Shown here in pieces: positions 1,511 through 49,958 of a stretch of DNA of 64,000 nucleotides. The DNA is taken from the NCBI GenBank assembly GCA_964487045.1, contig CAZAOT010000001.1, positions 4,875 to 68,874 of the forward strand, in the 5' to 3' direction. The first letter of the stretch is position 1. Each line of letters begins with the position of its first letter. This DNA comes from an uncultured Candidatus Saccharibacteria bacterium (GTDB taxonomy: Bacteria; Patescibacteriota; UBA1384; DTJR01). A model generated the notes under the pieces. The model saw only the letters and a program-made list of their open reading frames with translations. It had not been told where the DNA came from and ran no database searches. Made by a program: the position numbers and the translations under genes.

Positions 1511-1999
1511 CTATTTGAATTTATCCCAGCCGGCGTCAATCTCCTTGTCAAAAGGATCAATTCGCTCTTCATCAGGATTATTTCTATTATAGTGTTTAGT
1601 GACGTGATAAAAAAGCATGACTGGCTCCTTGGAAATGCTCTTATAGCCATGGGCGACTCCAACTGGAATTAGTATCAGTTTGTAATCACCCTCTCCTGCT
1701 TCCACAATTTGTTTAACTTTATATGTTTTTGAATTCTTGCGTCTGTCGTACATCACGATCACTGCTTTACCCGAAGCGACAAACCAGAGGTCGTCTTGGT
1801 ATTTGTGGTAGTGAAAAGCTTTAATCGTACCTTTGCTTGAGATGGTGAAATTGCTTTGGCCAAATTTCTTCATCAATTTGTCGTCATCACGCAAAACTTC
1901 CATGAAAATTCCAGGTTCAATCTTTTGCTCTAAGTCTGGAATATCTTTGAAGACTTTTAGTTTCTTGATTACTACTCCGTCAATTTTTCCTGTTTTCAT
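1511..1999 (-). CDS. rfbC: dTDP-4-dehydrorhamnose 3,5-epimerase-like cupin (RmlC family, short form)
   Basis: 162 aa cupin (FHYHKYQDDLWFVASGKAVIVMYDRR; VAHGY). Sits between rfbA and rfbB, and its start abuts the rfbA stop. Confidence 0.7.
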   Translation of the reverse strand: MKTGKIDGVVIKKLKVFKDIPDLEQKIEPGIFMEVLRDDDKLMKKFGQSNFTISSKGTIKAFHYHKYQDDLWFVASGKAVIVMYDRRKNSKTYKVKQIVEAGEGDYKLILIPVGVAHGYKSISKEPVMLFYHVTKHYNRNNPDEERIDPFDKEIDAGWDKFK

Positions 2000-24189: not shown

Positions 24190-24218
24190 TTGACTTGAAG
24201 CCGATATTATGTTATTTT
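24190..24218 (+). promoter_or_regulatory. putative promoter of GC-rich island 1
   Basis: TTGACT (24190-24195), 17 nt, then TATTTT (24213-24218). The -10 box is weak. The track ATG at 24209 lies inside this promoter. Confidence 0.35.
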
Positions 24219-24268
24219 TTTGTGTCAGGTTTTTTGCAGCCTGCATCACAGCAAGGGAGGGTTGTACC

Positions 24269-25675
24269 TTGAAACTTCGAGATTTGACTAGGGTTAGTAC
24301 GGCCGGTCAGCTTCATCATCTTCTGAGTAAGAAACGAACCCGCAATGAGAATGTCGAGCTGGGGGCTCTGCTCGAGAGTAATCTAGCGCTTGCCAGGCGA
24401 CTGGTCACCTTGGTGGCTGGCTCTGCTGACGCTAGTCTGGTCAAGATGTTCTCACCGATCTTCTGTCTGCTTTCGTCATCTTTGAGGGCGCAGATGATTG
24501 AGTCTTTCAAGCCGTTCAAGAGCAGAGAGTTTCTGTTCTTCGTCTCAAGTCTACCGGCCAAGGGGCTAAGGTACTTGATCAGGGCCCTCGATAAGATGTC
24601 GTCCGTTGACGACACGAGGTTTTGTCTCGGAAAGCTAGTCGTATCAGGCAATCCCGAATGGCCGGGTGTTATCGGCGAGGCTTTTTCGGACAAGGACCTT
24701 GACAGGTTGCGGGCGCGTGAGCCGATCTGTAGCGAACAATCAGAGGAATTCACTTCTCTACAGGCTATTACCTACATGATCGGTAGCTTGCTCTCAGCCA
24801 GCGTCATTCTTCTGCCGGTGTGTGGTCGGAATCCTCGACCCGAATACAACCTCGCTGGTTTCAAGCTGACAGAGATCAGGCCTCATGAGACATTGGTTAT
24901 GAATGGAGAGAAGTCTCAGAACCACTGGCTTCCTTGGGTATTTCAGACAGAGGAGGGAGTTGAGAAGGCGCTCCACTTACTCGAATTCCTCGTCGGCAGT
25001 CTGAGCCTCTGCGATCAGGGCAACGAGTTGCTCAACAGGATTGGTGACGATGCCGAAAGGATGCTGGTAGAGATCAGTGAGCGCTGGGAAGCAATCAAGA
25101 AAGGCGTGCATCGCTGGGTACTCCCAGATGGACAGATGAAGCTTCGGTTCGGAGGCGACTTTGTCTTCTGTGGCCTGATGGTGACAGAACTTCACCCCGG
25201 GAAGAAAGTACCCGAGATGACGGTCAGAATCGTACAGAATCGATTCGGTTACCTCAAGTTCAAGGATCGGCCTCTCGACGAGAATGGCCTTTTTAAGGAC
25301 ATGGACCTCGGTAAGCAGGTCGGACTGCTCGAACTTGGCATCAACCACAAGGTGGTCTGCTGGCTGGCTGATTACGCTTTGCGACCTTCAAACTACAAGC
25401 CAAAGAATGGTGAAGGCAAGAGTCTTGACCCGATCAAGGTCGCGTTTGGCGAAGGCAAGCTGCCTGCTGGGTTTCACCTTCCTGAGTATATGAATCTCCC
25501 GGACAAGATAAAGCAGAACGGCAAGCCTTACGAAGCCAGTGGCGATGCGAAGAAGCGCGCCGAAGCGCTGGGCTGGGCCGAGCCGACTGATGGTCAGACC
25601 TTTAGGATGTCGGGAGATCCTCTTAAGGAAGGCCTTGGCCTTCCGGAACCCCTCGACATCGTATATGATGTCTGA
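24269..25675 (+). CDS. orphan protein of GC-rich island 1
   Basis: About 468 aa from the TTG at 24269, preceded by GGGAGGG 7 nt upstream. G/C-ending codon bias unlike the flanks. No family recognised. Followed by a hairpin terminator. Confidence 0.7.
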   Translation: MKLRDLTRVSTAGQLHHLLSKKRTRNENVELGALLESNLALARRLVTLVAGSADASLVKMFSPIFCLLSSSLRAQMIESFKPFKSREFLFFVSSLPAKGLRYLIRALDKMSSVDDTRFCLGKLVVSGNPEWPGVIGEAFSDKDLDRLRAREPICSEQSEEFTSLQAITYMIGSLLSASVILLPVCGRNPRPEYNLAGFKLTEIRPHETLVMNGEKSQNHWLPWVFQTEEGVEKALHLLEFLVGSLSLCDQGNELLNRIGDDAERMLVEISERWEAIKKGVHRWVLPDGQMKLRFGGDFVFCGLMVTELHPGKKVPEMTVRIVQNRFGYLKFKDRPLDENGLFKDMDLGKQVGLLELGINHKVVCWLADYALRPSNYKPKNGEGKSLDPIKVAFGEGKLPAGFHLPEYMNLPDKIKQNGKPYEASGDAKKRAEALGWAEPTDGQTFRMSGDPLKEGLGLPEPLDIVYDV

Positions 25676-27868: not shown

Positions 27869-29638
27869 ATGCAAGAGCTGGTGCTGTTTGTTGCTGTAAT
27901 CGGCTATCTGATCGGGTCGATACCGATCGGCTATCTGATTGGCAAGAAGTTCGGCGTGAATCTTCTCGAAGAAGGGTCTAAGGCGATCGGCCGGACCAAC
28001 CTCGAGCGGGTTCTCGCGCCGATCATCGGCGCCAAGCGCGCCAAGCTCTGGGGTTATATCGGCGAGGCAGGCGACCAGCTCAAGGGACTCGTCCCAATTC
28101 TGATTGGTATGCTTCTGCTTCGTCTTGACCCCATCTCGCTCGCTGTCCTCGCTACTTCGCTCATTCTCGGCCACTGCTACTCTGCGTTTCTTTTCTTCAG
28201 GGGTGGCAAGGGAGTCGCGACGACGATGGGCATCGTGCTTGCTCTTTGCTGGTACATCGCTGTGCCATGCTACGTGTTCTGGTTTGCCGCCAAGAAAGCG
28301 CTCGAGACCAAGACGCAGGAGGCAACCGCACTCGCTTCGATTCGCGGAGGTCTTCTGGTTGGTGTTCTGGGAGTCATGGTCACGCACGACCTGGCCATGC
28401 AGATCTTCTTCGCCTTTGCTGCGCTTCACATCGTTTTTGCTCACCGCGAGAACCTGAAGCGCTACAGGCAGGAACAGCTGCAGAAGAAGCTTGAGAAAGC
28501 AAGCTTCCCGGACGATATGCCGACCGGTGTATTCATCACCGATGCGGCTACGAACAATCCTGAGACGGTCAAGCGGCTTCTGATGCAAAAGAAGAAGTTC
28601 GCCTGGCTCGTCAACCTCTTTCCGGCCCAGTTCGTCTGCGACGTGATTCTCCCCATCATCCCGATGAAGTACCTGAAGATGGGCGAGGTCATCCTCGAGA
28701 ATGATCTTGGGGCCAAGGTCAGAGTTGTGACCTGGGGCTACCCGGACATCCCAAGACGAATGATGGAGAACCCGGGCCGTACGATCTCGAGGCTACTTGA
28801 TCTTTGTTCATACGTCGAGTCGCTTGGTGCAGACGACATCTGCCTTGGCGCCAACACAGCCAGTGTCGGCGACAAGGGAGCAACGCTTCAGCAGTTTGCC
28901 CAGTCGATCACGAACGGCAATCGCCTAACCTGCGTCTATGCGGTTAAGGCTGCTCTCAAAGTGCTAGACACAATGCTAATCCCTCGAGGAACCGCTGTAG
29001 CAACTGTGGTTGGCAGTGGCGGCTCAGTAGGAGATGGCGTGTGTCAGCTTCTGCTCAAGGCCGGTATCGGACGCCTGTATTTGGTTGGAAGCACTCTTGG
29101 TAAACAGGCTGGTCAGGCAACTGAGCTCTCGAGGCGTTTTGGGGTTCCGGTTGAAGAACTGGGACTAATGGACGCCCTCTCGCGAAGTCATCTGGCCATC
29201 TTTGCCTCTAGTGGTACGGCCAGAGAGAACGCGCACAAGATCAATCCCGAGGCGCTTCCAGCAGGCTTGATTGTCGTTGACATGGAACGCCCGCGCGAGA
29301 TCTCAAAGATGCTTGCCGAGTATGTGTGGCTTCTGCCGAACGATGGTGGCATGGTTGCTATCGAAGGAACGGGCAAGGCTGGGACTGGCTTGCCTGAAGG
29401 CGTTTACTTCCCTTGTTTCAGCGAACTAGCCTTGCGCCTCTTCCGCGGAATCAGGACGAAGTGGTGCTATCCAGCTACTCTCGAGGAATTGAGGGAGGTT
29501 TGGGAAGCGGCTGAGGAGGAAGGCTTCTCTCTAGCTGGTCTGCGTCTTAATGAGCAGCCAGTTGAAGATCATGAGCTTGCTTTCCGTATCGAGCAAGCAG
29601 AGATGGCAAAAGCCTACAAACCCAGGAGGGTGACATGA
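27869..29638 (+). CDS. fusion protein: PlsY-like glycerol-3-phosphate acyltransferase + acyl-ACP-reductase-like NAD(P) domain
   Basis: 589 aa, GC-rich.
- Residues 1-200 are PlsY-like: YLIGSIPIGYLIGKKFG, GDQLKG, LGHCYSAFLFFRGGKGVATT, AHRENLKRY.
- Residues about 215-589 are collinear with cyanobacterial AAR recalled from memory: TNGN, VVGSGGSVG and YFPCFSE versus TTGN, VVGATGDIG and MFACFAE, which contains the catalytic Cys. Confidence 0.8.
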   Translation: MQELVLFVAVIGYLIGSIPIGYLIGKKFGVNLLEEGSKAIGRTNLERVLAPIIGAKRAKLWGYIGEAGDQLKGLVPILIGMLLLRLDPISLAVLATSLILGHCYSAFLFFRGGKGVATTMGIVLALCWYIAVPCYVFWFAAKKALETKTQEATALASIRGGLLVGVLGVMVTHDLAMQIFFAFAALHIVFAHRENLKRYRQEQLQKKLEKASFPDDMPTGVFITDAATNNPETVKRLLMQKKKFAWLVNLFPAQFVCDVILPIIPMKYLKMGEVILENDLGAKVRVVTWGYPDIPRRMMENPGRTISRLLDLCSYVESLGADDICLGANTASVGDKGATLQQFAQSITNGNRLTCVYAVKAALKVLDTMLIPRGTAVATVVGSGGSVGDGVCQLLLKAGIGRLYLVGSTLGKQAGQATELSRRFGVPVEELGLMDALSRSHLAIFASSGTARENAHKINPEALPAGLIVVDMERPREISKMLAEYVWLLPNDGGMVAIEGTGKAGTGLPEGVYFPCFSELALRLFRGIRTKWCYPATLEELREVWEAAEEEGFSLAGLRLNEQPVEDHELAFRIEQAEMAKAYKPRRVT

Positions 29639-30804
29639 ACAGTAGGGTGGCCGTGCTTGGAGCGGGCCAGTTTGGCTTTGCTCTTGCTTGCCGATTGGCT
29701 CAAGGCGGGATAAAGACGGTTCTGTGGGGCCGTAGTCCGCATATTCTCAGCGGTCCGCGGGCAGTCTCACAGCGGTTCAGTGGTGGATCGCCGCCCCTTG
29801 GGCTTCAAGTTACTGGCGGATCAGGTCTTCCCAGCCTGGATGACTTTGACCTGGTCTTTGTCGCCACTGATTCTTCTGGACTCGCTGAGCTAGTCCCGAT
29901 GATCGCCCAGAGTGATATTGGCGATACGCCGGTTCTTCTTGTCCAGAAGGGTCTTGTGAATGGTGTCTCTCCCGTGGAATTCGCTAGCGCCGCCGGACTT
30001 AACGCCGGTTCGTTTACCGGCGCGGCCTTCGCAAGTGACATCTATCTCGGCTCTGAGGCGATGATGATCGTCGCAGCCGAGGACGTTACCCTCTGCATTA
30101 CAGTGATGGAGCTGCTTAAGCCCCTTAAGTTCTGGATAACTGCATGTAGTGATCCAGACGCGATCTGCGCTGCCAACGTAGCGCGAACGATCACCTCGAT
30201 CGAGATGGGTATTGTCAGCGGCTTCGCGGACTACTTGCAGCGCCAATCAAAGTATGCACTGGTGCCGCATAGGTCGCCTGACTTTACTCCAACCGAGATC
30301 GCGGCGGCCACCGCTAGCATCCAGTACGAGTGGCGGGTTGTCTCAGCGATGCTTAGTCCGGTGATTAACTCCTTGCTCTATCCAGAAGTAGTCTCGGATG
30401 ATGTTTCGATCGTGCGCAACATCAATCGCGAGCGCATTCTCAGGGTCCTTTCCGCTGACAACTACCTCTGCAGCGGGATGATACTCGACCGTAACGACAG
30501 GGGAGGAGATTCTCGGGTGACTCTGGGTCTTCCTCTCGCCACACCGGTCTCGCGCAACTGGCGGTTTGGCTATGCGCTTGGCTGCTGGCGTTATGTCCCG
30601 GATGCCATAAGGGCGGTTGCTGACCTTGGAGTGATCCAGGGGCAGCAGAACGCTCTTGATCTATACAAGCGGTTCGGTGCGAGCGCCCCGCCGTTTCTCA
30701 CCTCCCTTGGCCGAATCTTGACTGAAGTGTCAAAGGTCGAGGAGGAGATCCAGGTCATTCGCGATCGTCGCGATGCCTGGTATGAAAAGTACGCTTCTAG
30801 CTGA
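29635..30804 (+). CDS. divergent GpsA-like NAD(P)H-dependent glycerol-3-phosphate dehydrogenase homolog
   Basis: 389 aa, GC-rich. VAVLGAGQFGFALACRLAQGG...VLWGR aligns with the GpsA N-terminus, and further blocks are collinear (VLLVQKGL; FTGAAFA). ATGA overlap with the upstream fusion gene. Confidence 0.65.
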   Translation: MNSRVAVLGAGQFGFALACRLAQGGIKTVLWGRSPHILSGPRAVSQRFSGGSPPLGLQVTGGSGLPSLDDFDLVFVATDSSGLAELVPMIAQSDIGDTPVLLVQKGLVNGVSPVEFASAAGLNAGSFTGAAFASDIYLGSEAMMIVAAEDVTLCITVMELLKPLKFWITACSDPDAICAANVARTITSIEMGIVSGFADYLQRQSKYALVPHRSPDFTPTEIAAATASIQYEWRVVSAMLSPVINSLLYPEVVSDDVSIVRNINRERILRVLSADNYLCSGMILDRNDRGGDSRVTLGLPLATPVSRNWRFGYALGCWRYVPDAIRAVADLGVIQGQQNALDLYKRFGASAPPFLTSLGRILTEVSKVEEEIQVIRDRRDAWYEKYASS

Positions 30805-35700: not shown

Positions 35701-36828
35701 ATGAAGCGAGATACTAAGATATTTATTACTCTGCTAATTTTTTTCCTAGCAGTTTTGGCTTTCTTCTGTAAGAAGGAGTATGAAAATCTTGATTATTTTT
35801 TGCCGCTTGCTAACTCGATCTTGCATGGAAAATTCAGTGTTAATTGCAACCTAGCGCTAAACGAACTCGTAAACATCAAAAATAGATGCTTTGTAGTTTA
35901 TCCGCCGGCGCCGGCGATCGCACTACTACCGTTTGCGCTTTTATTTGGCAGCAAATTAAGCCAAGTATACCCTGGAATCATCTATGCCTCGCTCGCCGGC
36001 GCCTTGTTCTATCTGGTTCTAAGACGTCTCACAAAAGAACCAGAAGCAATAGCGCTTAGTTTATTTCTGATGTTTGGCACTAATTTCTTCATGATTTCGC
36101 TGATTGGAAGGTCATGGTATTTTGCCCATGTCACCGGAATATTTTTCATGGTTATTTCAGTACTCTTTGCCCTCAAAAAAAAGCCATACTTAGCTGGAAT
36201 TTTCTTAGGCTTAGCTGGCATGAGCCGTTTGCCGATGCTCTTTGCTTTTCCAGCAGTCTTATATCTTCTCAAACCTACCAAAAAAGATTATATAAAGTTT
36301 TTTATTCCAGTTAGCGCAGTTGTTCTTATTTTCTTAGCCTATAATTACTATCGTTTCGGCTCGATATTTCAAACTGGCTACTCCCTGATTCCGGGAGTGC
36401 TTGATGAAGCTTGGTACAAGCAGGGGATTATGTCGCTTAGCTATATACCTAGAAATCTCAAAGCGATGTTCCTGCAAATGCCAGAATATATATCCGTTTT
36501 CCCTTGGTTTGTTCCCAAGACTTATGCCATGGCCTTGTGGCTAACTTCGCCGGCCCTTCTGCTTCTTGTTTTTGGCCTTAAGGACAAGCGCTCCTTAGTA
36601 ATGATGCTGAGCTTCGCTTTAATAATTTTCACCGATTTAATGCACGGCGCGGTCGGATTTAGTCAGTTTGGTTACAGATTTGCGCTTGATGGAATGATTT
36701 TTCTTATTATCGCGATGATTCCAGCCCTTGAGTCACAGCCGATACTATCACTAAGCTTAATCTTTGTAAGTGTAGTGATAAACTTTTACGCTGTTTTGGA
36801 ATATGCGCTTGGTTACTTTCATCCTTAA
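35701..36828 (+). CDS. polytopic membrane protein, probable GT-C-fold glycosyltransferase (ArnT/PMT-like)
   Basis: 375 aa, about 10 TM segments. Functional call is tentative. Confidence 0.55.
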   Translation: MKRDTKIFITLLIFFLAVLAFFCKKEYENLDYFLPLANSILHGKFSVNCNLALNELVNIKNRCFVVYPPAPAIALLPFALLFGSKLSQVYPGIIYASLAGALFYLVLRRLTKEPEAIALSLFLMFGTNFFMISLIGRSWYFAHVTGIFFMVISVLFALKKKPYLAGIFLGLAGMSRLPMLFAFPAVLYLLKPTKKDYIKFFIPVSAVVLIFLAYNYYRFGSIFQTGYSLIPGVLDEAWYKQGIMSLSYIPRNLKAMFLQMPEYISVFPWFVPKTYAMALWLTSPALLLLVFGLKDKRSLVMMLSFALIIFTDLMHGAVGFSQFGYRFALDGMIFLIIAMIPALESQPILSLSLIFVSVVINFYAVLEYALGYFHP

Positions 36829-37220
36829 ATATCGATTCTGCTATAATTAATCTGTACTAATTTTTCTGCAAAACATTTACTTCTGCGTGAAGTATCTCAA
36901 AAGAGGGGGCACCCCGATTAAATTTACATATTTAACGGGTCGAGGTGACGTACTTTTTTCGCCTAAAATCTGATAGGTAATCGTTCAGTCTCGCCTGGCA
37001 CCCTATTGCATAGCGCGATAGAACTATCACAAGTCTAACAACCTCTTTTTGCTCGCTTTGTTAAAGTCGAAATCATTTCTTTGGTTTTTACAAAGTAGAG
37101 CTAAGCGAAACCAGTCGCTATTATTAGTTTTTTGTTCGAAGGAGGGGAAAATTCGGCAATTGTTTTGTTAGTGATTTTTTTCATACTAATGAGTGGGCGG
37201 TAAGATTTTAAAAAATATTT

Positions 37221-37264
37221 AAACAAAAGAGGCGGGAGCGAAGGGGTTGCCCTTCGCTCCCGCC
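37221..37264 (-). terminator. intrinsic terminator of the GC-rich small-protein operon
   Basis: GGCGGGAGCGAAGGG pairs with CCCTTCGCTCCCGCC (37231-37264), followed on the minus strand by TCTTTTGTTT. Confidence 0.8.
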
Positions 37265-37270
37265 GGGATG

Positions 37271-37423
37271 CTACGCGCTTTTCGCGCGCTTGATGTGGTA
37301 GGCGAGTGAGATGATGGCGCACACCCCACAGAAGAATGGGATTGCGCGTATGTGCTCACCTCCATAGGCCTCAATAAGGCCGCCAGTGACCAGCGATAGA
37401 ATCGAATAGCCCAGAAGACTCAT
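37271..37423 (-). CDS. 50-aa two-TM peptide (gene D of GC-rich operon)
   Basis: MSLLGYSILSLVTGGLIEAYGGEHIRAIPFFCGVCAIISLAYHIKRAKSA. RBS TAGGAG overlaps the stop of gene C. Not in the ORF track because of its size. Confidence 0.55.
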   Translation of the reverse strand: MSLLGYSILSLVTGGLIEAYGGEHIRAIPFFCGVCAIISLAYHIKRAKSA

Positions 37424-37433
37424 CGTGATACTC

Positions 37434-37709
37434 CTATTCTAATCCCAGAGTTGCTCCGCCGGCAAAGCGGCGTTCTGTTTCAGCGAGGAGAGCCTTTCCC
37501 TCGATCGTCACCATGTTGTCCGACATGATTCCTTGCTTGTCTGGACAAATGATGAGTTCTGCTTCGCCTGTCAGTCTGACTTCAGCGGAACTCGTTTCCG
37601 CTATCTCGACAAAAAGAGGTGGCTCGTGTGAGCCAGACTTATTCTTCAGACAGACCCAGATACGCGAGCCGACAGGTTGGCGCCTGAGGTCGAAGAAGTT
37701 TAGCTTCAC
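37434..37709 (-). CDS. 91-aa soluble protein (gene C of GC-rich operon)
   Basis: GTG at 37709, preceded by GAGGAGG. GTGA start/stop overlap with gene B. VKLNFFDLRRQPVGSRIWVCLKNK... No family recognised. Confidence 0.6.
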   Translation of the reverse strand: MKLNFFDLRRQPVGSRIWVCLKNKSGSHEPPLFVEIAETSSAEVRLTGEAELIICPDKQGIMSDNMVTIEGKALLAETERRFAGGATLGLE

Positions 37710-37927
37710 GCTACCTCCTCGCTTGACGCTTCGGCTGTTTCTTCTCTTCTTCCTCTGAACGAAGAGATGATGGCAAGGCCGCCACAGAAGATGCAATTGC
37801 CGCTTGCGAGGAGAGTCACTGAGACTGGCACGTCCTGCTTGATGTAGAGAATACCGAGCAGGACAAGTCCCATGGCGATTAGTCCGAGACCGCTAAGGAT
37901 CAGGCTTATATCCGGTTTGTATTTCAT
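37706..37927 (-). CDS. 73-aa two-TM protein (gene B of GC-rich operon)
   Basis: MKYKPDISLILSGLGLIAMGLVLLGILYIK...NCIFCGGLAIISSF. RBS AAGGGAAAG. Starts 15 nt after the gene A stop. Confidence 0.65.
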   Translation of the reverse strand: MKYKPDISLILSGLGLIAMGLVLLGILYIKQDVPVSVTLLASGNCIFCGGLAIISSFRGRREETAEASSEEVA

Positions 37928-37942
37928 TGGTGCTTTCCCTTT

Positions 37943-38077
37943 CTAGCGCGTGAATGCGAACTGGGGAAGGTGCTGCCAGGCGAGAGCAATGGCAGCACAG
38001 AAGATGATCACTAGTCCTACCAAGGCGAGGTAGGCCGGCAGATTGTGCCTTTCTGATTCTAGGAATCTTAGTCGCAT
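37943..38077 (-). CDS. 44-aa single-TM peptide (gene A of GC-rich operon)
   Basis: MRLRFLESERHNLPAYLALVGLVIIFCAAIALAWQHLPQFAFTR. RBS AGGGAGAGGG lies 3 nt upstream of the ATG at 38077. Confidence 0.5.
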   Translation of the reverse strand: MRLRFLESERHNLPAYLALVGLVIIFCAAIALAWQHLPQFAFTR

Positions 38078-38204
38078 GATCCCTCTCCCTATGTCAAGTT
38101 TCTTGTGTTTTACAGAATTAGGATATTTTACATCAAAAAACCCACCTTATCAAGGGTGGGCGATCATTATTTGATCAGATCATGATATATTAAATGTCTT
38201 AGTC

Positions 38205-38233
38205 TTGAAAACTTTGCGCATAAGAAGTAGTAT
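38205..38233 (+). promoter_or_regulatory. promoter of tRNA-Arg
   Basis: TTGAAA (38205-38210), 17 nt, then TAGTAT (38228-38233), 11 nt before the mature tRNA 5' end. Confidence 0.55.
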
Positions 38234-38244
38234 TACCCTGATAT

Positions 38245-38321
38245 GCACCCGTAGCTCAGCTGGATAGAGCGTTGGCTTGCGGAGCCAAAGGTCGTAGGTT
38301 CGAATCCTATCGGGTGTACCA
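38245..38321 (+). tRNA. tRNA-Arg (anticodon GCG)
   Basis: 77 nt. Acceptor GCACCCG/CGGGTGT, D arm with A20, anticodon arm TTGGC-TTGCGGA-GCCAA, T arm GTAGG-TTCGAAT-CCTAT, encoded CCA. Its last 6 nt are also the first 6 nt of IR-A. Confidence 0.9.
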
Positions 38322-39776
38322 GTACGGAAATGTCAAATTTTGGGAGTTTGCGCCGCCTGCGGCGGCGACTAAATTGTAGGGAATTTTTGCTTCAAAATGC
38401 CACTTTCGATTCTGTAAGAAATGGTTCGAGCCGATATTTTTGAGAAATGTTAGAATTTCCGAATAATCTTCGGAATTTTTTAGTTTATCTGCTTTGGCAA
38501 GCGATAAAATGAACTCTTTGGCCGGTTCGAGCCAAGACAATCCTTTTTGTTCAAAATCTGTAATTTTTTCGTTAATCTCCAGCTTTTCGCTAAGTAGCTT
38601 TTGTTTTCGCAAAGTATATTCTTCGGTTGTAATGACTTCGCTCAGATATACATCGAGTAATTTTTCAAGCTGTTTCGTAATTTCTTCGAGCTTTACTTTG
38701 AGATTTTGAACAGAAGTTTTAGCCAACGTTCTTGCTTGAGTTTCTTGTTTCTCTAATTCAAACAAAACTTTTTTGGTATCTTGGCTCGACAAAGAAACTT
38801 TTTGTAAATACCCATTTATTTGCTCAACGAGTTTTTCTTCTCGCAGATAATGCTTTTCTTGGCAACCACTTTTCTTTTTTGTGCATCGGTAATAGTTGTG
38901 GCCTTTTTGTATTTCGGCAGTAATCGCACAGCCGCAACTTTTACATTTCATAAGCCCAAGAAAAGCAAAATGATGTTTTTCCTTTTTGCGAGGCTTGCCA
39001 CGATCTTTCAATACTTCTTGGCATTTATCAAAAAGTTTCTTTGGGATTATCGGTTTGTGTTTTCCTTCGTATATTTCGCCGTTATATTTCATTAGCCCAA
39101 TGTAGAAAATATTTTGTAGAATTGAATTGATATTGCTGATAGAAATCCTCTTGTTGAGATTCCCGAATAACATGTCATCTTCCGCCCAATTTGCGAGAGA
39201 ATTAAAGGTATATTTGCCGGTTGAATAGAGCTCAAAAAGCTTTCTGACTTTTCTAACCTTTATTTCGTCGACATCAATATTTCTTGTTCTCGGATTATTT
39301 ATATAGCCAACCGGCGCCCAGCCGGGCCAAACTCCATTTCGTATTTTTTGCCTTAACCCTCGTTTTACATTCTCTCGCAAATTGTCTACAAAATATTTTG
39401 ATTGACCAAAAGCAATGTTCAACATGAAAATCCCTTGAGGTGTTGGTTCAAACCAGAACGAAGGAAAACACAAGGATTTGATTTTCTGCCGGTCTATCAT
39501 GTGGATTATCTTTCCACCGTCTACACTATTTCTTGCTAACCTGTCAGGGTGCCAACTCAAAATCCCTTCCGCCTTTCCTTTTTCGATCAATTCTAACATT
39601 TCAGCGAACTTCGTTCGACCAGGTTCTTTGGCAGTTTTGGCTTCGCACAGCGAAGCGACAATTTCAAGTTTTTCTTTGGCGGCAAATTCCCGAAGCTCAA
39701 CTAGTTGAGCTTCAATCGAAAGAACTTGTCTGTCATCATCTTCAGTACTTTTGCGAGCGTAAATTATGTAGCGCAT
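38307..39776 (-). CDS. large serine recombinase (integrase)
   Basis: 489 aa from the ATG at 39776 (RBS AAAGGAGG).
- MRYIIYARKSTEDDDRQVLSIEAQ resolvase catalytic domain (Ser10).
- Recombinase domain, zinc ribbon CKSCGC...YYRC...C, and a coiled-coil.
- AT-rich.
- The last roughly 36 codons lie in IR-A, and the stop lies inside the tRNA. Confidence 0.9.
   Translation of the reverse strand: MRYIIYARKSTEDDDRQVLSIEAQLVELREFAAKEKLEIVASLCEAKTAKEPGRTKFAEMLELIEKGKAEGILSWHPDRLARNSVDGGKIIHMIDRQKIKSLCFPSFWFEPTPQGIFMLNIAFGQSKYFVDNLRENVKRGLRQKIRNGVWPGWAPVGYINNPRTRNIDVDEIKVRKVRKLFELYSTGKYTFNSLANWAEDDMLFGNLNKRISISNINSILQNIFYIGLMKYNGEIYEGKHKPIIPKKLFDKCQEVLKDRGKPRKKEKHHFAFLGLMKCKSCGCAITAEIQKGHNYYRCTKKKSGCQEKHYLREEKLVEQINGYLQKVSLSSQDTKKVLFELEKQETQARTLAKTSVQNLKVKLEEITKQLEKLLDVYLSEVITTEEYTLRKQKLLSEKLEINEKITDFEQKGLSWLEPAKEFILSLAKADKLKNSEDYSEILTFLKNIGSNHFLQNRKWHFEAKIPYNLVAAAGGANSQNLTFPYWYTR
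38316..38415 (+). repeat. IR-A, left copy (100 bp)
   Basis: Manual base-by-base comparison with the reverse complement of 39817-39916 gives 98/100 identical (mismatches at 38398 and 38407). Contains the palindrome CGCCGCCTGCGGCGGCG. Confidence 0.9.
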
Positions 39777-39816
39777 TTTCCTCCTTTTAATTTCATAAAA
39801 ATTTTCTTTTACAATC

Positions 39817-39916
39817 ACAGAATCAAAAGTGGCAATTTGAAGCAAAAATTCCCTACAATTTAGTCGCCGCCGCAGGCGGCGCAAACTCCCAAAATTTGAC
39901 ATTTCCGTACTGGTAC
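39817..39916 (-). repeat. IR-A, right copy (100 bp, inverted)
   Basis: Reverse complement of 38316-38415 with 2 mismatches. Lies upstream of the recombinase start. Its outer 7 nt (CTGGTAC) are shared with IR-B. Confidence 0.9.
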
Positions 39917-40004
39917 TCTATCCTGAAAATTGTTCGAACGTATTTTGGCCGCGAAGCGGCCGAGAAAACACCCCCGAAAATTCCCGACTGAAATTCTGAA
40001 CTTT
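39910..40004 (+). repeat. IR-B, left copy (95 bp)
   Basis: Manual comparison with the reverse complement of 40970-41064 gives 95/95 identical. Contains the hairpin GGCCGCGAAGCGGCC. Confidence 0.92.
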
Positions 40005-40133
40005 CAAAACTGCCAAAGAATCTGTTTCAAAAATATCGGCTCGAATCCATTAGTTTGTAAAAGAAAATTTTTATTAATTCAATCAGCACTGATTGATTTT
40101 TTATTCTTCTTGGTATATGCTTTTATTCAACAA

Positions 40134-40175
40134 TCGAAAGCAGAAATATTGAGTTTCTCAATTTCCTGCTTTCGA
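40134..40175 (+). promoter_or_regulatory. long imperfect hairpin upstream of the cargo gene
   Basis: TCGAAAGCAGAAATATTGAG, loop TTT, then CTCAATTTCCTGCTTTCGA: a roughly 19-bp stem with small bulges. An alternative CCTGCTT/AAGCAGG stem lies at 40165-40181. Sits about 37 nt before the cargo RBS. Confidence 0.4.
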
Positions 40176-40225
40176 AGCAGGAAAATCTCTGTACAGGCCA
40201 CAAGGCCGTGCAAGGAGTGAGAACA

Positions 40226-40846
40226 TTGTCTAAGGTCAACAGTATCCAGCTCACGTGTCTCAAGCCGAATGACTGTTCCACCCGACTTGCTCTTCCCGAA
40301 GTCACCTACGACTTTCGGGTGTGGGCTATCATCAACGACCTTGAGAAGGCCGTTGAGAAGGCGGGCGGTGCAACGCTCGCAGTCTTCGCGGGTGTTCCGT
40401 GGGAGTACGGGAGCCGCTCGGTCAACTTTCTCAACTATGTGGCCGAGATGGTGGTGAGAACAAACCGCGGCAAAGGGGAATTCATCGGAAGAAGCTATCT
40501 TGCGAGTGGCGGGATGTCACGGCTCGCAAGCTTGATGAAGGACGTTCGGCCAGACGGACAGATCAGAGCTGTGGTCGACCAAATCACGCGAACAATCTGG
40601 TCCGACCAGCCGATCCCGCGCGGTTTGCCCGACAATCTCTGGTACGAGCAGACGGACTACGAGTCGTTCTGCATCAAGTCGGGCAAAGGTGACATCATCA
40701 GGTGGGTTCCCGAGAATCAAGTTCAGGAGGAGCGGACGATGGGATTTCTCCGCTTGGAGTTTGAGGAGCCCTCTGTCAAGCACTTCTGTCAGCTAATTCA
40801 ACAGCTACATCGCTTTCCGGGTGTGGCCGAGTTCGCCAACGGCTAG
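40226..40846 (+). CDS. orphan GC-rich cargo protein of the recombinase element
   Basis: About 206 aa from the TTG at 40226 (AAGGAG 8 nt upstream); GTG at 40208 or 40217 are alternative starts. G/C-ending codon bias. No family recognised. Followed by a terminator. Confidence 0.65.
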   Translation: MSKVNSIQLTCLKPNDCSTRLALPEVTYDFRVWAIINDLEKAVEKAGGATLAVFAGVPWEYGSRSVNFLNYVAEMVVRTNRGKGEFIGRSYLASGGMSRLASLMKDVRPDGQIRAVVDQITRTIWSDQPIPRGLPDNLWYEQTDYESFCIKSGKGDIIRWVPENQVQEERTMGFLRLEFEEPSVKHFCQLIQQLHRFPGVAEFANG

Positions 40847-40869
40847 CTGTAGACCGGAGTACAAGCAAC

Positions 40870-40898
40870 AGGCAGACCAGCAGTGGCCTGCCTTTTTT
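40870..40898 (+). terminator. intrinsic terminator after cargo gene
   Basis: AGGCAGACC pairs with GGCCTGCCT (one mismatch), followed by TTTTTCTT. Confidence 0.6.
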
Positions 40899-40969
40899 CT
40901 TGCCGCCAAAGGAGAAATCTGCTAAGATTTCTCTAGTGAGCGAAGCTCACTAAAAAACTTGAAATTGTC

Positions 40970-41064
40970 AAAGTTCAGAATTTCAGTCGGGAATTTTCGG
41001 GGGTGTTTTCTCGGCCGCTTCGCGGCCAAAATACGTTCGAACAATTTTCAGGATAGAGTACCAG
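40970..41064 (-). repeat. IR-B, right copy (95 bp, inverted)
   Basis: Perfect reverse complement of 39910-40004. Ends with GTACCAG at 41058-41064. Confidence 0.92.
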
Positions 41065-41186
41065 AATAAAATTTGCCCCTCGCGGGCTAATTTTATTATT
41101 TGGGAACCATAGGATTCGAAGGCCGCAGCGAGCGTAGGCGAGCGAGGCGGGGTCGATGAATTTGCCAGCAGGCAAATATCAGTGAC

Positions 41187-41208
41187 CGAATCCTATCGGG
41201 TGTACCAG
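41187..41208 (+). repeat. direct repeat of tRNA-Arg 3' end (att-type site)
   Basis: 22/22 identical to 38301-38322. Followed by hairpin ATATGAC...GTCATAT plus T8 (41210-41248). Confidence 0.85.
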
Positions 41209-41288
41209 AATATGACCCCGCACAAGTGGAGTCATATTTTTTTTATTGATGTTGTTTGATGAGCGGGGTAAAATTAAATAAATAATTA

Positions 41289-41828
41289 ATGGCAAATTAT
41301 ATGAACGAAGATACAAAGCATAAGTTTCTGTTAGCAATTTTGATTATATTGATCATAGTGCTCCTAGGCTTGGTTGGGCTTATCTATAGACAGATTAAGT
41401 CTGCTAGAGACGTGGCAGCTCGAGAGGATGGCTTGGTGTCAAGCTCAGCTACAATCGCTCCTACGGACAATATCAGTGTATCCTACGACTTGGGGTCACC
41501 AAGCAGCGCAAATACGGAGATACTTGATGGCGTTAAGGACGTCGCAAATAGGTTTATGCAAGCCAAAGAAAATCGATCTCTAGAAGAAGCCAAGCCTTAT
41601 ATGACTGAAGATCTATTTAAGTCGACAGCTCAGGAAGAATTCGCTGGAACGTCTAGTCCGTCAATGGATCGATTTGAGGTTAAAAGTGCCCAAGCGGTTA
41701 AGACTCCAAATACTTATGAAGTTGATGTGGTTAGCTACTGGAAATTAAACGGCGAAGATGCCGAAACGGTTAATTATAGTTTGATAGTTATAAAACAAGA
41801 CGAAAATTATCTGGTTAGTAAATTCTAG
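41289..41828 (+). CDS. hypothetical membrane-anchored protein
   Basis: 179 aa with an N-terminal TM helix (FLLAILIILIIVLLGLVGLIY). AT-rich. Confidence 0.65.
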   Translation: MANYMNEDTKHKFLLAILIILIIVLLGLVGLIYRQIKSARDVAAREDGLVSSSATIAPTDNISVSYDLGSPSSANTEILDGVKDVANRFMQAKENRSLEEAKPYMTEDLFKSTAQEEFAGTSSPSMDRFEVKSAQAVKTPNTYEVDVVSYWKLNGEDAETVNYSLIVIKQDENYLVSKF

Positions 41829-43496: not shown

Positions 43497-43586
<90 letters not shown>

Positions 43587-43750: not shown

Positions 43751-44179
43751 ATGTGTAAGAAACTGATATTTGCTAGTACGCTGGCACCGAAACTCTACTG
43801 CTTGTGCACACCGAGTGAGGAGTTGCTGGAGGTCTTGCTTGAGCGTGCCAAGGACGATGAGTGTCGCGCCGAGCCACTTATGGTGGCCGAACAGGAGATC
43901 GAGTTCGGGCCAGCCAACTATCTTTATGACGAGGCCCGCATGCGCGTCTGTGAGGCTAGTGCAGGCATGGCTACGGTCATGATCCAGGTCGGTAGTCATG
44001 CTGATGGAATTCGATCAGTGCTTGTGCCTGTTGGCGAGAAGGAGGGTGATGACGAAGCCCTGCCTGAAGGGGCTTTGATGCCAGGTATCGGTTGCCCGAT
44101 GGAATGTCTGCTGGGCCTGGGGCTGTTTTGTCTCGTGATCAAAGGCGGCATTTGCGCCGTCCATTATCTGCTCGGCTAA
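43751..44179 (+). CDS. orphan Cys-rich protein with C-terminal TM helix (GC-rich island 6)
   Basis: 142 aa. RBS GAGGAGAGAG. C-terminus GIGCPMECLLGLGLFCLVIKGGICAVHYLLG. Confidence 0.6.
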   Translation: MCKKLIFASTLAPKLYCLCTPSEELLEVLLERAKDDECRAEPLMVAEQEIEFGPANYLYDEARMRVCEASAGMATVMIQVGSHADGIRSVLVPVGEKEGDDEALPEGALMPGIGCPMECLLGLGLFCLVIKGGICAVHYLLG

Positions 44180-44200
44180 TGGCCGGGAGGGGAGTACAGC

Positions 44201-44512
44201 ATGTCTTTGTTTGGCAAAAAGGGAGAGCCGAAGCCGCCTAAGGTGAGGAAGGAGCGCAAGCCGCGCGCTCCGATCACCAAGGAGCGAGTCTTTGAAGGGT
44301 TGTTGGCTTTTGGCCGCAACCTGTTGCTGGTAGTGACCGTCGTAGGCATCTTGGCGCTCTCGGCGCTCGTCTACGTCCTGTTCCAGAAGATCGGCGGCGG
44401 CAGTAGCGACCCAGCAACGAAGAACCTGATTCTCGTCGCGACTGCGATGACGGCCGGAGGCGGCTTTTTCACGCTCTGGCTCGGCCGCACCTGGGGCATC
44501 ATCCCGTACTAG
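44201..44512 (+). CDS. orphan two-TM protein with Lys/Arg-rich N-terminus (GC-rich island 6)
   Basis: 103 aa. RBS GGGAGGGGAG lies 6 nt upstream of the ATG. Followed by a strong terminator. Confidence 0.65.
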   Translation: MSLFGKKGEPKPPKVRKERKPRAPITKERVFEGLLAFGRNLLLVVTVVGILALSALVYVLFQKIGGGSSDPATKNLILVATAMTAGGGFFTLWLGRTWGIIPY

Positions 44513-44535
44513 GGCTGATGCCTGCGAGCATCTTT

Positions 44536-44576
44536 GGCGGTTTGTCCGGTCACCCGGACAAACCGCCTTCTTTTTT
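44536..44576 (+). terminator. intrinsic terminator
   Basis: GGCGGTTTGTCCGG (44536-44549), loop TCAC, CCGGACAAACCGCC (44554-44567), then TTCTTTTTT. Confidence 0.85.
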
Positions 44577-44582
44577 AAAAAC

Positions 44583-44603
44583 AAAAAAATCGCCCTTTGG
44601 CGA
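44583..44603 (-). terminator. intrinsic terminator of the valS-TPR operon
   Basis: TCGCC (44590-44594) pairs with GGCGA (44599-44603), with a T7 run on the minus strand. Confidence 0.5.
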
Positions 44604-47495: not shown

Positions 47496-47524
47496 TTGAC
47501 TAATTATTACTCTTGAGCTATATT
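47496..47524 (+). promoter_or_regulatory. sigma70-type promoter of GC-rich island 7
   Basis: TTGACT (47496-47501), exactly 17 nt, then TATATT (47519-47524). Confidence 0.65.
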
Positions 47525-47575
47525 TTCAGGATTGAGTGCCCCTTATGGGGCCCAAAGGACATTGAGGTGATGGCG

Positions 47576-48730
47576 ATGCGAATCGGCATGTTCACTTTGA
47601 CTTATGGAAGGTCTAACGGCGTGGCCGTCTCCGTCGCCAATCTGAGCCGCGCGCTTCGCGAAGCCGGCCATGAAGTTCATATCTTCGGGCCAAGCGGTGT
47701 GGCGGATACAGACGAATTCTACCATCCGTTCGTGACGGTGCGATTTCCCCAGGCTCCGGACTATCCGGTGCCAATACCGAACTTCCTGCGTGCTCTCAAG
47801 ATAGCGCGTCGGTACAATCTTAAGCTTATGCACACTCACCATCCTTGGCTGCTCGGCAGTGATGCGGTGAGGGTGGCGCGCGAGCTGGAGGTGCCGGTAG
47901 TTTCCACGGTGCACACTCAGTATGATTTCTACTCCGAGCTTTTCCCGTGGATTCCGAGCAAATGGAAGCGCAAAGCGCTGCATTGGGTGCTCAGGCGTCA
48001 CCTCTGCAGTGTCGATCTGGTGACGACGCCGGGCATTGGTTCCAAGGCGCGCCTGGATGACATGCAGCTGACTACGCCGGTTCGTCTCGTCACCAACGGC
48101 ACCGACCTGTCGCTCTTCGGGTATGGCGGCGCCAACGAAATCAGACGCCAGCTCAGAATTCCGGAAGGCGCCCAGGTCTTCGGCTATGTTGGCCGGTTCG
48201 ATCCCGAAAAAGATCTCGGCACCCTGATCGATGCGGCGGCTAAAGTGTTCAAATGGCATCCGCGAGCCGTGCTGCTCATGGTCGGCGACGGTAAAGAGCG
48301 CGAATCGCTCGAGTGGAAATCCAAACCGCTCGGCAACCGAGTCATCTTCACCGGCCGAATTGCCCACGAGCAAATCGCGCCCTACTACAGCGCGATGGAT
48401 ATCTTCGTCACGCCGAGTAGGTTCGAGGTTCAGCCGATGACCATCGCCGAAGCGTTTGCCAGCGGTTTGCCGGTCGTTGCTTTGGATGTGCCTGGCAGCG
48501 AGATGGTCCATCACGGCTACAACGGCCTGCTCGTGGATCCAGCCCAACCGGTAAGCGCCCTGGCTCGAGGAGTCAGTCAGATCTTTAGCGACCCATTCCG
48601 ACATCTGACGCTACAGGGCCACGCCAGAGAGTCGGCGCGGCAGTACGAAACCGCCGAAGCTTTGTCACAGATGCTCAGTGCCTACCAAGACGCCGGCTAC
48701 TTCTGCCGCACTCGTCAGTCGTCCGTCTAA
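47576..48730 (+). CDS. GT4 glycosyltransferase, GC-rich copy (diacylglycerol glycosyltransferase-like branch)
   Basis: About 384 aa from MRIGMFTLTY (GAGGTG RBS; ATG at 47570 is an alternative start). Motifs NGVAVS, GHEVHIFGP, TVHTQYDFY, VDLVTTPG, EVQPMTIAEA. Resembles alMGS/CpoA-type GT4 (from memory). Confidence 0.8.
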   Translation: MRIGMFTLTYGRSNGVAVSVANLSRALREAGHEVHIFGPSGVADTDEFYHPFVTVRFPQAPDYPVPIPNFLRALKIARRYNLKLMHTHHPWLLGSDAVRVARELEVPVVSTVHTQYDFYSELFPWIPSKWKRKALHWVLRRHLCSVDLVTTPGIGSKARLDDMQLTTPVRLVTNGTDLSLFGYGGANEIRRQLRIPEGAQVFGYVGRFDPEKDLGTLIDAAAKVFKWHPRAVLLMVGDGKERESLEWKSKPLGNRVIFTGRIAHEQIAPYYSAMDIFVTPSRFEVQPMTIAEAFASGLPVVALDVPGSEMVHHGYNGLLVDPAQPVSALARGVSQIFSDPFRHLTLQGHARESARQYETAEALSQMLSAYQDAGYFCRTRQSSV

Positions 48731-48746: not shown

Positions 48747-48778
48747 GGCCGGAGGTTCGCCTCCGGCCTGTTTTTTTT
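48747..48778 (+). terminator. intrinsic terminator
   Basis: GGCCGGAGG (48747-48755), loop TTCG, CCTCCGGCC (48760-48768), then TGTTTTTTTT. Confidence 0.85.
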
Positions 48779-48803
48779 GAAAAAAGGTTCTACAATTAGG
48801 GTG

Positions 48804-49958
48804 ATGAAGATCGCAATTTTTACTAATACCTATTGGCCAACTGTAAATGGCGTAGCTGTTTCGGCGACTAATTTGCGCGAAGGACTCATTCAGCTTGGAC
48901 ATGAGGTTTTTATCTTTGCGCCAGACGACGAAGATTTGAAGAAGTTGAAAGAACAGGCTAACGTTTATCGCTATCCATCTTTCAATATTAAAGAAATTGC
49001 TGATTATGAATTGGCGCTTCCGTCCTTGAAGATTAATGAAGTTTTAGATAAAAATTCCTTTGATATCGTGCACAGCGAACATCCGCTCTGGATAGGAAAG
49101 TGGGGGATGAATTATGCCAAAAAAACCAATACCCCGATTATTACAACCGTTCATACTCAGTACGATCTCTACGCCAAATTAATACCGCTACCCCAGGGAA
49201 TTTTGGTACCAATTTTACATAAAAATCTTAATCGATATTTAAATAATGTTGATTTAGTGACGACTCCAGGGGAGGGATCGAAGCAAAGGCTGATTGAGCA
49301 AGGAGTGAAGACGCCGATCAGGGTGGTTTCAAACGCGACCGATCTCAGTAGGTACTGGAAGGCCAAAGGAGATAAGGTACGCCGTGAGCTGACTAACAAT
49401 AATGAGAAATTGATTGGGTTTGTCGGGCGGCTATCGAAGGAAAAAGACGTTTCTGTCTTACTTGATGCAATGAATCTTATTTTAAATAAAATGCCTGATA
49501 GTAAGCTCATTTTGATTGGTGATGGTCCGGATAGAAAAGAGCTCGAGGAAAAAGCCAAAACTATTTCAAACAAAATTGTTTTTCTTGGCAAAATTGATCA
49601 TAAACAAATCCCTGATTATTATGCCTCCTTTGATATTTTTCTCTCGGCTAGCCAGTCGGAGGTTCAGCCAATGACTTTTGCCGAAGCGATGGCAACCGGT
49701 ACGCCGATTGTTGTTTTTAATGTTGCTGGTTGTAATGATATGGTGAAAAATCGCGAGAATGGACTATTGATTGACCCTAAAAAGGGCGCCCAGGGATTGG
49801 CAGATGCGGTGACAAAGATTTTAGTAAACGAAAAAGAGTTAAAAAAATTAAGCTCTCAGGCTAGAAAATGGGCCAGCCGCTATGATCTGATGACGGCGAC
49901 CAAAGATATGGTTGAAGCCTATGAGCAGGCAATCAAGATTCACTCAAACAAGAACTAA
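48804..49958 (+). CDS. GT4 glycosyltransferase, AT-rich copy (same subfamily as 47576-48730)
   Basis: About 384 aa from MKIAIFTNTY. Shares NGVAVS, GHEVFIFAP, TVHTQYDLY, VDLVTTPG and EVQPMTFAEA with the upstream GC-rich gene. Confidence 0.85.
   Translation: MKIAIFTNTYWPTVNGVAVSATNLREGLIQLGHEVFIFAPDDEDLKKLKEQANVYRYPSFNIKEIADYELALPSLKINEVLDKNSFDIVHSEHPLWIGKWGMNYAKKTNTPIITTVHTQYDLYAKLIPLPQGILVPILHKNLNRYLNNVDLVTTPGEGSKQRLIEQGVKTPIRVVSNATDLSRYWKAKGDKVRRELTNNNEKLIGFVGRLSKEKDVSVLLDAMNLILNKMPDSKLILIGDGPDRKELEEKAKTISNKIVFLGKIDHKQIPDYYASFDIFLSASQSEVQPMTFAEAMATGTPIVVFNVAGCNDMVKNRENGLLIDPKKGAQGLADAVTKILVNEKELKKLSSQARKWASRYDLMTATKDMVEAYEQAIKIHSNKN

Follow-up and report, generated by a model that had tools for sequence, protein, structure and literature searches.

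Phage morons and flexible islets are among the described systems closest to the locus presented here. Phage morons, known from lambdoid phages, are autonomous promoter-gene-terminator cassettes of deviant composition. Flexible genomic islets (also called replacement islands) lie beside tRNA genes, vary from strain to strain between conserved flanks and are exchanged by homologous recombination. To our knowledge almost nothing is known of the accessory genome of the Patescibacteria, or Candidate Phyla Radiation (CPR), and literature searches on the sample accessions and on small-protein hypervariation in CPR bacteria yielded nothing relevant. The DNA analysed is a 64-kb stretch of contig CAZAOT010000001.1 (64,000 nucleotides, hereafter the window), in which four small minus-strand genes, A to D, lie beside a tRNA-Arg gene. 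A preliminary description, made from the letters of the window, had reported them as a micro-operon of tiny membrane proteins. A to D form a genuine compact GC-rich four-gene operon, which is best understood as the present cargo of a conserved slot between tRNA-Arg(gcg) and the gene for a 375-amino-acid (aa) membrane protein. The reading that we favour, with slightly better than even confidence, is that the operon is an accessory, horizontally exchanged small-membrane-protein cargo of this slot.

The operon resembles a flexible islet in that the slot is fixed by a tRNA gene, the flanks are conserved and the relatives hold unrelated gene sets or none; its composition is also atypical, and the same cargo is found unchanged in a strain with diverged flanks. 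It differs in that the cargo is very small (0.9 kb), with almost all proteins under 100 aa, in that the transcription signals themselves are the conserved slot ends, and in that A is retained in several versions. Like a moron, the operon has its own promoter (38153-38125) and its own terminator (37264-37231), is inserted between conserved neighbours, deviates clearly in GC content (54% vs 41%) and encodes small membrane proteins, as many moron exclusion proteins are; it is also dispensable, since relatives have empty sites. Unlike a moron, it is not in a prophage, its neighbours being cellular genes (LeuRS, TyrRS/TrpRS, GH1, glycosyltransferases), it consists of four genes rather than one, its products have no PHROG match and A, C and the nearby recombinase have no relatives in viral contigs. 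The promoter and terminator, moreover, belong to the backbone slot and do not travel with each cargo. Of three moron traits the operon thus shows two, own signals and deviant composition, and lacks the third, a prophage location.

Operon layout and the conserved slot

The features of the operon and its surroundings are as follows.

38245-38321, plus strand: tRNA-Arg(gcg), the slot neighbour, whose 3' end is the attachment site of a 2.9-kb serine-recombinase element
38140..38161, minus strand: G+C hairpin followed by a T-run, terminator-like, with 7 pairs and the tail TTTTTGATGT
38153-38125, minus strand: sigma-70-like promoter TTGATA-17-TAAAAT (consensus scan, 10 of 12 matches)
38083..38097, minus strand: element TTGACA of the 5' untranslated region (UTR), then the Shine-Dalgarno (SD) sequence of gene A; conserved in the alignment of loci
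37943-38077, minus strand: gene A, 44 aa; spans the membrane once, carries an NLPAY motif and the helix IIFCAAIALAW, and is the conserved first gene
37706-37927, minus strand: gene B, 73 aa, two transmembrane (TM) helices and an acidic C-terminal tail, with CIFCGGLAI (CxxC) in TM2
37434-37709, minus strand: gene C, 91 aa, GTG start; soluble, without signal peptide or TM segment
37271-37423, minus strand: gene D, 50 aa, two hydrophobic segments, with FFCGVCAIIS (CxxC) in the second
37221..37264 (stem scan 37264-37231), minus strand: intrinsic terminator, a 15-bp stem with a T-rich tail (consensus scan)
37156..37225, no strand: non-conserved spacer from cargo to backbone, unalignable between the window and L002
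37137..37155, plus strand: conserved backbone hairpin CGAAGGAGGGGAAAATTCG, the outer edge of the variable slot, unique in the window

The four packed open reading frames (ORFs) have the coordinates given in the preliminary description, and the two tight junctions that it had pointed out are both present in the sequence. The stop of B overlaps the start of C as GTGA, and the stop of C, TAG, is the first triplet of the ribosome-binding site (RBS) of D, TAGGAG; C is translationally coupled to B. The strong SD sequence claimed for every ORF was seen for A (GGGAGAGGG), C (GAGGAGG) and D (TAGGAG), whereas that of B (AAGGGAAAG) is only moderate. The very strong terminator described earlier was recovered by the consensus scan, with G-C pairs at 12 of the 15 positions of its stem. 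The promoter had been absent from that description; its -35 hexamer lies in the loop of the hairpin at 38161-38140. No Rfam family matched in the operon block.

To assess the coding status of the four frames, a log-odds score of codon usage was derived from five other GC-rich genes of the window. For each ORF the annotated frame came out best of the six and was the only one with a positive score; a leave-one-out control picked the right frame for 37 of 39 chunks of 150 nucleotides (nt). GC content was lower at second codon positions than at first and at third positions in each ORF, which is the coding-type pattern.

The conservation of the slot was read by taking the neighbouring 375-aa membrane protein, 48-70% identical among the relatives, as the anchor. 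Nine related loci were read, among them those listed here with the identity of that protein, the position of tRNA-Arg and the cargo.

L011: 70%; tRNA-Arg co-oriented and directly upstream; A homologue of 45 aa, then membrane proteins of 70, 66 and 223 aa, the 66-aa and 223-aa proteins being DUF1328-like
L012: 69%; contig ends before tRNA-Arg; A homologue of 42 aa, then genes of 46 and 99 aa and a DUF1328 protein of 61 aa
L016: 55%; tRNA-Arg 3' end directly upstream; two-helix protein of 50 aa, protein of 191 aa and further small ORFs
L018: 48%; two tandem co-oriented tRNA-Arg copies directly upstream; two-helix protein of 47 aa and protein of 182 aa
L015: 59%; tRNA-Arg on the minus strand; no cargo
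L013 and L014: 57%; tRNA-Arg on the plus strand; no cargo
L019: 48%; two tRNA-Arg genes on the plus strand; no cargo

The ends of the slot are conserved. In an upstream alignment of five loci (the window, L011, L012, L016 and L018) the conserved elements are a hairpin with covarying stems and a CCTTGA loop that holds the -35 box, the T-run and the -10 box; in L011, L016 and L018 the homologous hairpin stands directly after the 3' end of tRNA-Arg. Between this module and the first gene, the TTGAC of the TTGAC(A) element before the SD is invariant in the five loci, including L016 and L018, whose first gene is not an A homologue. At the other end, the base of the terminator stem, GGCGG(G/A)AG...CT(C/T)CCGCC (GGCGGGAG/CTCCCGCC), is common to the window, L005, L011, L012 and L018, whereas the upper stems differ. 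The 5' module and the terminator stem base are each unique within the window. Beyond the terminator, the backbone hairpin CGAAGGAGGG(G)AAAATTCG is found in every locus read there (the window, L002, L011, L012, L013, L015 and L018). The promoter, the 5' UTR and the terminator base are conserved, and the genes between them differ or are absent; the locus is an expression slot.

The relation of position to content is also seen at the locus of P0004, a 116-aa protein homologous to C. Its operon consists of genes of 160, 79, 229, 68 and 116 aa followed by a terminator and the gene of a LuxR-type regulator. The terminator stands directly after the C homologue and its stem base matches that of the window, and D has no counterpart in this operon. 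Many genes over about 15 kb are in the same order in the two contigs: TyrRS/TrpRS, LeuRS, a TPR protein, a MamF-like protein (104/107 aa), a gene of 176/179 aa on the opposite strand, the operon, the 375/377-aa gene and DUF7544. The matching gene order shows that the P0004 locus is orthologous in position to the window operon.

Several smaller features were noted around the slot. The loop of the backbone hairpin is GGAGG, and the outer pair of its stem covaries (C-G, T-A, T.G). A start codon follows the hairpin by about 3-8 nt and opens a tiny ORF, mostly of 3-4 codons (MFC, MFIV or MII, each then a stop) and longer in L002 and L012. The hairpin had no Rfam match; it and the tiny ORF may represent a structured RNA or a leader peptide. 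The L012 slot also includes, downstream, the gene of a zinc-ribbon-like 141-aa protein very rich in CxxC pairs (1604-2029, minus strand) and, upstream, a separate mini-operon (3178-3557, minus strand) that encodes an OmpR-type winged-helix fragment (65 aa) and a 61-aa membrane protein.

Composition, proposed exchange and the tRNA-Arg neighbour

The operon block has 52-55% GC against 39-41% in the neighbouring genes, and the adjacent intergenic stretches have 34-36%. At third codon positions (GC3) the contrast is 0.57-0.67 in the operon vs 0.37-0.45 in the backbone. The shift, of 8-13 GC points overall, is found in other occupants of the slot as well: the cargo of the window has 54% GC and its 375-aa gene 41%, and the corresponding values are 51 and 42% for L011 and 57 and 46% for L012. 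Since it recurs in three genomes, the composition is a property of the slot and not of the window genome alone. A possible sign of exchange comes from L002, a contig of another sequencing run, which matches the window with 0 differences across the 887 nt between 38112 and 37226. Beyond the operon, about 70-90 nt cannot be aligned, and the roughly 130 nt after them show 5 differences (about 96% identity). By our own arithmetic, the probability of 0 differences in 887 nt is about 1e-15 at the flank rate and about 1e-4 at 1% per site. The identity fits a recent transfer or sweep of the cargo. The window junctions are reproduced exactly in three further contigs, the runs of which may be the source of the genome itself, so that an assembly chimera at the junctions is unlikely. 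A direct repeat (CGCCCAC...) at both edges of the operon was considered and set aside, being unconvincing by eye and absent from L002.

The mechanism that we propose has the cargo exchanged horizontally by homologous recombination across the conserved slot ends. The region would also be reworked by tRNA-targeting serine recombinases, as the 2.9-kb element, the orientation of the tRNA, which varies between genomes, and the tandem tRNA copies in L018 indicate. A number of points weigh against exchange of an accessory cargo. Exchange by homologous recombination is read from the pattern only, and scans of genome, metagenome and viral contigs gave no donor sequence for the cargo. The identity with L002 could mean that one population was sampled twice for the operon, with a polymorphic spacer, and the high GC content could come in part from amino-acid composition. 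Most of the loci compared are short metagenomic contigs, and their sole taxonomic hint is a 43%-identical homologue of the 375-aa protein that is labelled Candidatus Berkelbacteria; by it the lineage probably belongs to the CPR, near Berkelbacteria. B and D have no homologues on which purifying selection could be measured, and no profile library gives a function for A to D.

As the preliminary description had it, the operon block adjoins the tRNA-Arg that hosts a recombinase element. At the two bounds of this element (38301-38322 and 41187-41208) 22 nt of the tRNA 3' end are repeated exactly and in direct orientation, which makes the element only 2.9 kb long. The gene at 38307-39902 matches Resolvase, Recombinase and Zn_ribbon_recom and is that of a large serine recombinase.

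Brought to tRNA-Arg by such a recombinase, the operon might be the cargo or remnant of an integrative element, that is, a moron-like cassette beside an attachment site. We regard this as doubtful. The arrangement in L011, L016 and L018, where the cargo begins directly after the 3' end of a co-oriented tRNA-Arg, speaks for it, as do the two tandem tRNA copies in L018, the varying orientation of the tRNA, the recombinase element with its GC-rich passenger gene at the same tRNA in the window, and the operon's own promoter, own terminator and deviant composition. The 22-nt repeat, however, encloses 38301-41208 only; the operon lies outside it, on the 5' side of the tRNA, with no tRNA-end repeat or other att-like repeat around it. 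The slot ends are conserved backbone and not element ends, no recombinase gene was seen in the readable stretches of L011-L018 (L011, L012 and L016 being short contigs), and phage-type relatives are lacking for A to D in PHROGs and for A, C and the recombinase in viral contigs.

Within the element, two inverted repeats were observed. Positions 38316-38415 pair with 39916-39817 (100 nt, 98%) and flank the serine-recombinase gene; positions 39910-40004 pair with 41064-40970 (95 nt, 100%) and flank a GC-rich ORF of 212 aa (40208-40846). The tRNA-end core GTACCAG is expected four times by the coordinates, at 38316, 39910 (reverse complement), 41058 and 41202. This layout suggests invertible segments or the assembly of a population of mixed orientation. 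The first 42 and the last approximately 28 codons of the 531-aa recombinase ORF are inside the repeats, and the true start is probably at MRYIIYARKST. On the opposite strand the ORF runs 15 nt (38307-38321) into the 3' end of tRNA-Arg, so that its annotated C-terminus is set by the attachment-site sequence. Relative to the 375-aa gene, tRNA-Arg(gcg) with its promoter is on the plus strand in the window, L013, L014 and L019 and on the minus strand in L011, L015 and L018. The coordinates of tRNA-Arg in relatives are 4385-4442 in L011, 7262-7337 in L013, 1680-1756 in L015 and 10886-11121 (two tandem copies) in L018. From these arrangements the tRNA gene appears to have been flipped or duplicated by site-specific recombination.

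Vertical inheritance offers another account, in which the genes are lineage-specific housekeeping genes for fast-evolving small subunits of a membrane complex, with a GC content that follows from amino-acid composition or from expression-linked codon choice. The gene order kept over about 15 kb with the P0004 relative is in its favour, and so are the conservation of A in three genomes, that of the promoter and terminator, and the fact that other GC-rich genes of the window encode ordinary enzymes (PlsY, a GpsA-like protein and a GT4 glycosyltransferase). It is nevertheless unlikely. The sites in L013, L014, L015 and L019 are empty, unrelated gene sets stand where the neighbouring protein is still 55-70% identical, the operon in L002 has no substitution despite its diverged flank, and the GC3 of the operon is far from that of the backbone.

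The encoded proteins and their possible role

By hydropathy A has one TM segment, B two, D two and C none. The designation as tiny membrane proteins thus holds for A, B and D and fails for C, which is a soluble protein, presumably cytoplasmic because it carries no signal peptide. None of the four matched a family in Pfam, NCBIfam, PHROGs or PADLOC; below threshold there was only TM-type noise, likewise for P0004, and in PADLOC no match at an E value of 1 or less was obtained for A to D, P0004 or the neighbours.

Relatives were found for two of the proteins. The A family has three members, all at the same locus (the window, L012 and L011). The homologue in L012 (2907-3035, minus strand, 42 aa) has a Smith-Waterman z of 17.3 and that in L011 (4154-4291, minus strand, 45 aa) one of 9.7; each opens the equivalent operon of its related metagenomic contig, and all members have N(L/F)PAY(L/C)AL and a Cys in the helix. 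For C, an exhaustive phmmer search of 1.84 billion cluster representatives returned P0004 as its sole detectable relative (42% identity, E = 3.5e-10). The two proteins share FFDLRRQPxGSxIWV at the N-terminus and AETxRxFxGGxTLG near the C-terminus, and P0004 starts at the residue equivalent to the start of C, which confirms the GTG start. A further phmmer match of C, the eukaryotic sushi-repeat protein P0005, was rejected as a short match driven by repeats. When a word index of 5.8 billion proteins was searched with C by itself or with a C/P0004 profile, C and P0004 were the only proteins returned. C and the profiles of C/P0004 and of the A family had no match when contigs of GTDB genomes, JGI metagenomes and IMG/VR viruses were scanned; in IMG/VR a recombinase query likewise found nothing. 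B has no homologue elsewhere and forms a singleton cluster, and none was found anywhere for D; against the small proteins of other cargos both gave marginal scores only. The conservation of reading frames, on which the preliminary description had made its proposal depend, was thus found for A and C, whose homologues stand at the same position in related genomes. The alignments define two new small-protein families, the single-pass NLPAY family of A and the C/P0004 family, with two members among the 1.84 billion representatives.

Structure comparison added little for C. An AlphaFold2 model from the two-sequence alignment (beta strands, then a helix) was unusable, with a predicted local distance difference test score of 49; a Foldseek search with it against the PDB gave nothing below E = 0.7, a result that we consider meaningless, and a sequence-profile search of the PDB with C gave only APOBEC noise (E ~0.5). 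Three resemblances were followed and dropped. The RRQPVGS motif of C recalls PilZ, with the wrong spacing, no DxSxxG and no Pfam match. The PAY motif of A recalls Flp pilins, with no G/xxxxEY site and no Pfam match. A relation of C to the soluble domain of the 182-aa and 191-aa cargo proteins of L018 and L016 had an hhalign probability of 0.3%.

The preliminary description had further proposed that the three hydrophobic products share an FC(G/A)xxAI helix motif and are paralogues. The motif is non-random. Across all six translated frames of the window, FC[GA]..A[IL] has no occurrences other than the three in A, B and D, and the ungapped three-way block IFCAAIAL / IFCGGLAI / FFCGVCAI scores 72 vs 38 +/- 5 for shuffles (z ~6). 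Triples drawn at random, 3000 in all, from the real TM segments predicted in the window scored 39 +/- 8 with a maximum of 70, and none reached 72. The repeat is also seen in the DNA, over 28 nt at 79% and 21 nt at 81% identity, and B (CIFC) and D (CGVC) each have one CxxC inside the motif helix. Paralogy is supported for A and B. Residues 30-53 of B (KQDVP...FCGGLAI) align with the A homologue of L012 (KQNLPAY...FCGALAL) with a score of 40 (Smith-Waterman z = 6.0), so that B looks like an extra N-terminal helix joined to an A-like module of loop and TM2. D shares only a block of 8-10 residues with A and B, and pairwise local alignments among A, B and D are marginal (p 0.04-0.12). Because of these marginal scores, a partial duplication and a convergence on a helix-packing motif are not separable as the possible source of the block in D.

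Among characterised systems, mer operons (MerT, MerF, MerE, MerP) are similar in combining several membrane proteins under 120 aa that have paired Cys in a TM helix with a soluble protein of about 90 aa, the place taken here by C. They differ in the sequences: no Pfam or NCBIfam match of A to D to the MerT, MerC, MerE, MerF or HMA families was obtained even at E of 10 or less, C has no GMxCxxC, its C20 and C55 are not conserved in P0004, and there is no MerR or MerA nearby. Two-helix proteins of 61-66 aa of the DUF1328 / UPF0391 (YtjA) type occupy the same slot in L011 and L012, whereas A to D do not match PF07043; the likeness is one of position only.

As for what the module may do, a weaker part of our proposal is that A, B and D would assemble in the membrane through the shared helix F-C-G/A-x-x-A-I/L, which would offer a small-residue packing face with a thiol, with B and D each adding a CxxC. 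C might dock on the cytoplasmic side, perhaps on the acidic tail of B. The module could then have a strain-variable role at the envelope, for instance by excluding phages or competitors or by protecting against them. This envelope or exclusion role is our preferred guess, and the pattern of turnover is its single ground.

The functions suggested in the preliminary description (a holin/toxin-like set, a bacteriocin-immunity-like module or a small-subunit complex) gained no profile match and no lysin or transporter partner nearby. One form of this proposal makes the four genes a toxin/immunity module of the membrane, or a holin-like or bacteriocin-like one, in which one or more hydrophobic peptides would damage membranes and C or another peptide would neutralise them. 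The products are small and hydrophobic, a hypervariable, horizontally exchanged locus is typical of conflict genes, and D has Gly-Gly at residues 21-22, before its second hydrophobic segment. We consider it quite unlikely all the same. No holin, toxin, immunity or defence profile was matched; for holins both Pfam and PHROGs were searched, and there is no lysin or endolysin among the neighbours. The scan of ORFs within 6 kb, with the remainder of the window covered less than exhaustively, showed no ABC transporter or peptidase typical of a bacteriocin locus, such as a C39-peptidase ABC transporter. The segment of D before the Gly-Gly is hydrophobic, whereas the N-terminus of double-glycine leaders is not; nor is there an antisense-RNA feature nearby, and the coupled four-gene layout differs from that of typical type I toxin-antitoxin loci. 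The slots of relatives, finally, contain DUF1328-type small membrane proteins, a type not known to be toxic.

A bolder extension of the cargo reading, which we offer as a long shot, makes the slot a dedicated CPR platform for capturing and expressing cassettes, integron-like without IntI or attC. GC-rich small-membrane-protein genes would be swapped in from a shared mobile pool, possibly helped by the large serine recombinase that flips or duplicates the tRNA, and A would be a resident subunit on which the variable partners B, C and D dock via the Cys helix. With an integron array the locus has in common a resident promoter, small variable genes that can be exchanged and a fixed site near a site-specific recombinase. 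It differs in that the recombinase is a large serine recombinase and not an IntI tyrosine recombinase, and in that GTGA and a stop within the next RBS couple the genes translationally, in the manner of an ordinary operon. No attC-like inverted repeats lie between the genes, and the scan of 36800-41400 shows only the terminator stem in the operon.

That A to D happen to be open by chance, within a GC-rich insert that is non-coding or codes for RNA, is extremely improbable and largely refuted, since the lack of homologues for B and D and the absence of A from public gene calls are set against the annotated frame being best of six in each ORF, the start positions and motifs that A and C share with their homologues, the SD sites with coupled stops and starts, and the lack of an Rfam match in the block.

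Other GC-rich genes of the window and wider meaning

Further genes with 53-58% GC (GC3 0.61-0.70) are set in the approximately 40% GC backbone of the window. They include a 488-aa protein of unknown kind (24209-25675), a PlsY-domain fusion with a GpsA-like dehydrogenase (27869-30804), and a GT4 glycosyltransferase (47513-48730) that adjoins a paralogue-like GT4 of 41% GC (48777-49958). The window genome is a compositional mosaic. A second GC-rich islet (43751-44584, 55-62% GC) adjoins tRNA-Ser(tga) at 43498-43586. It encodes two proteins without a family match, one of 142 aa whose C-terminal TM helix is rich in Cys (GLFCLVIKGGICAV) and one of 103 aa with two helices; in L013, too, a GC-rich stretch adjoins tRNA-Ser(tga).

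The operon and its slot behave like a small flexible islet at a tRNA gene with a conserved, built-in expression frame. The locus offers a clean comparative case of a fixed expression slot, in which a conserved promoter and terminator bracket a small-protein cargo that turns over. It also illustrates how small membrane proteins are systematically missed in annotation: no public contig has a gene call for A, and two of the ORFs were too short for the first ORF track. The Cys in a small-residue helix face is a motif that can be tested. The practical value is modest until a function is shown. If the cargo does have a strain-variable envelope or exclusion function, the slot would bear on how these episymbiotic bacteria deal with phages, hosts and competitors.

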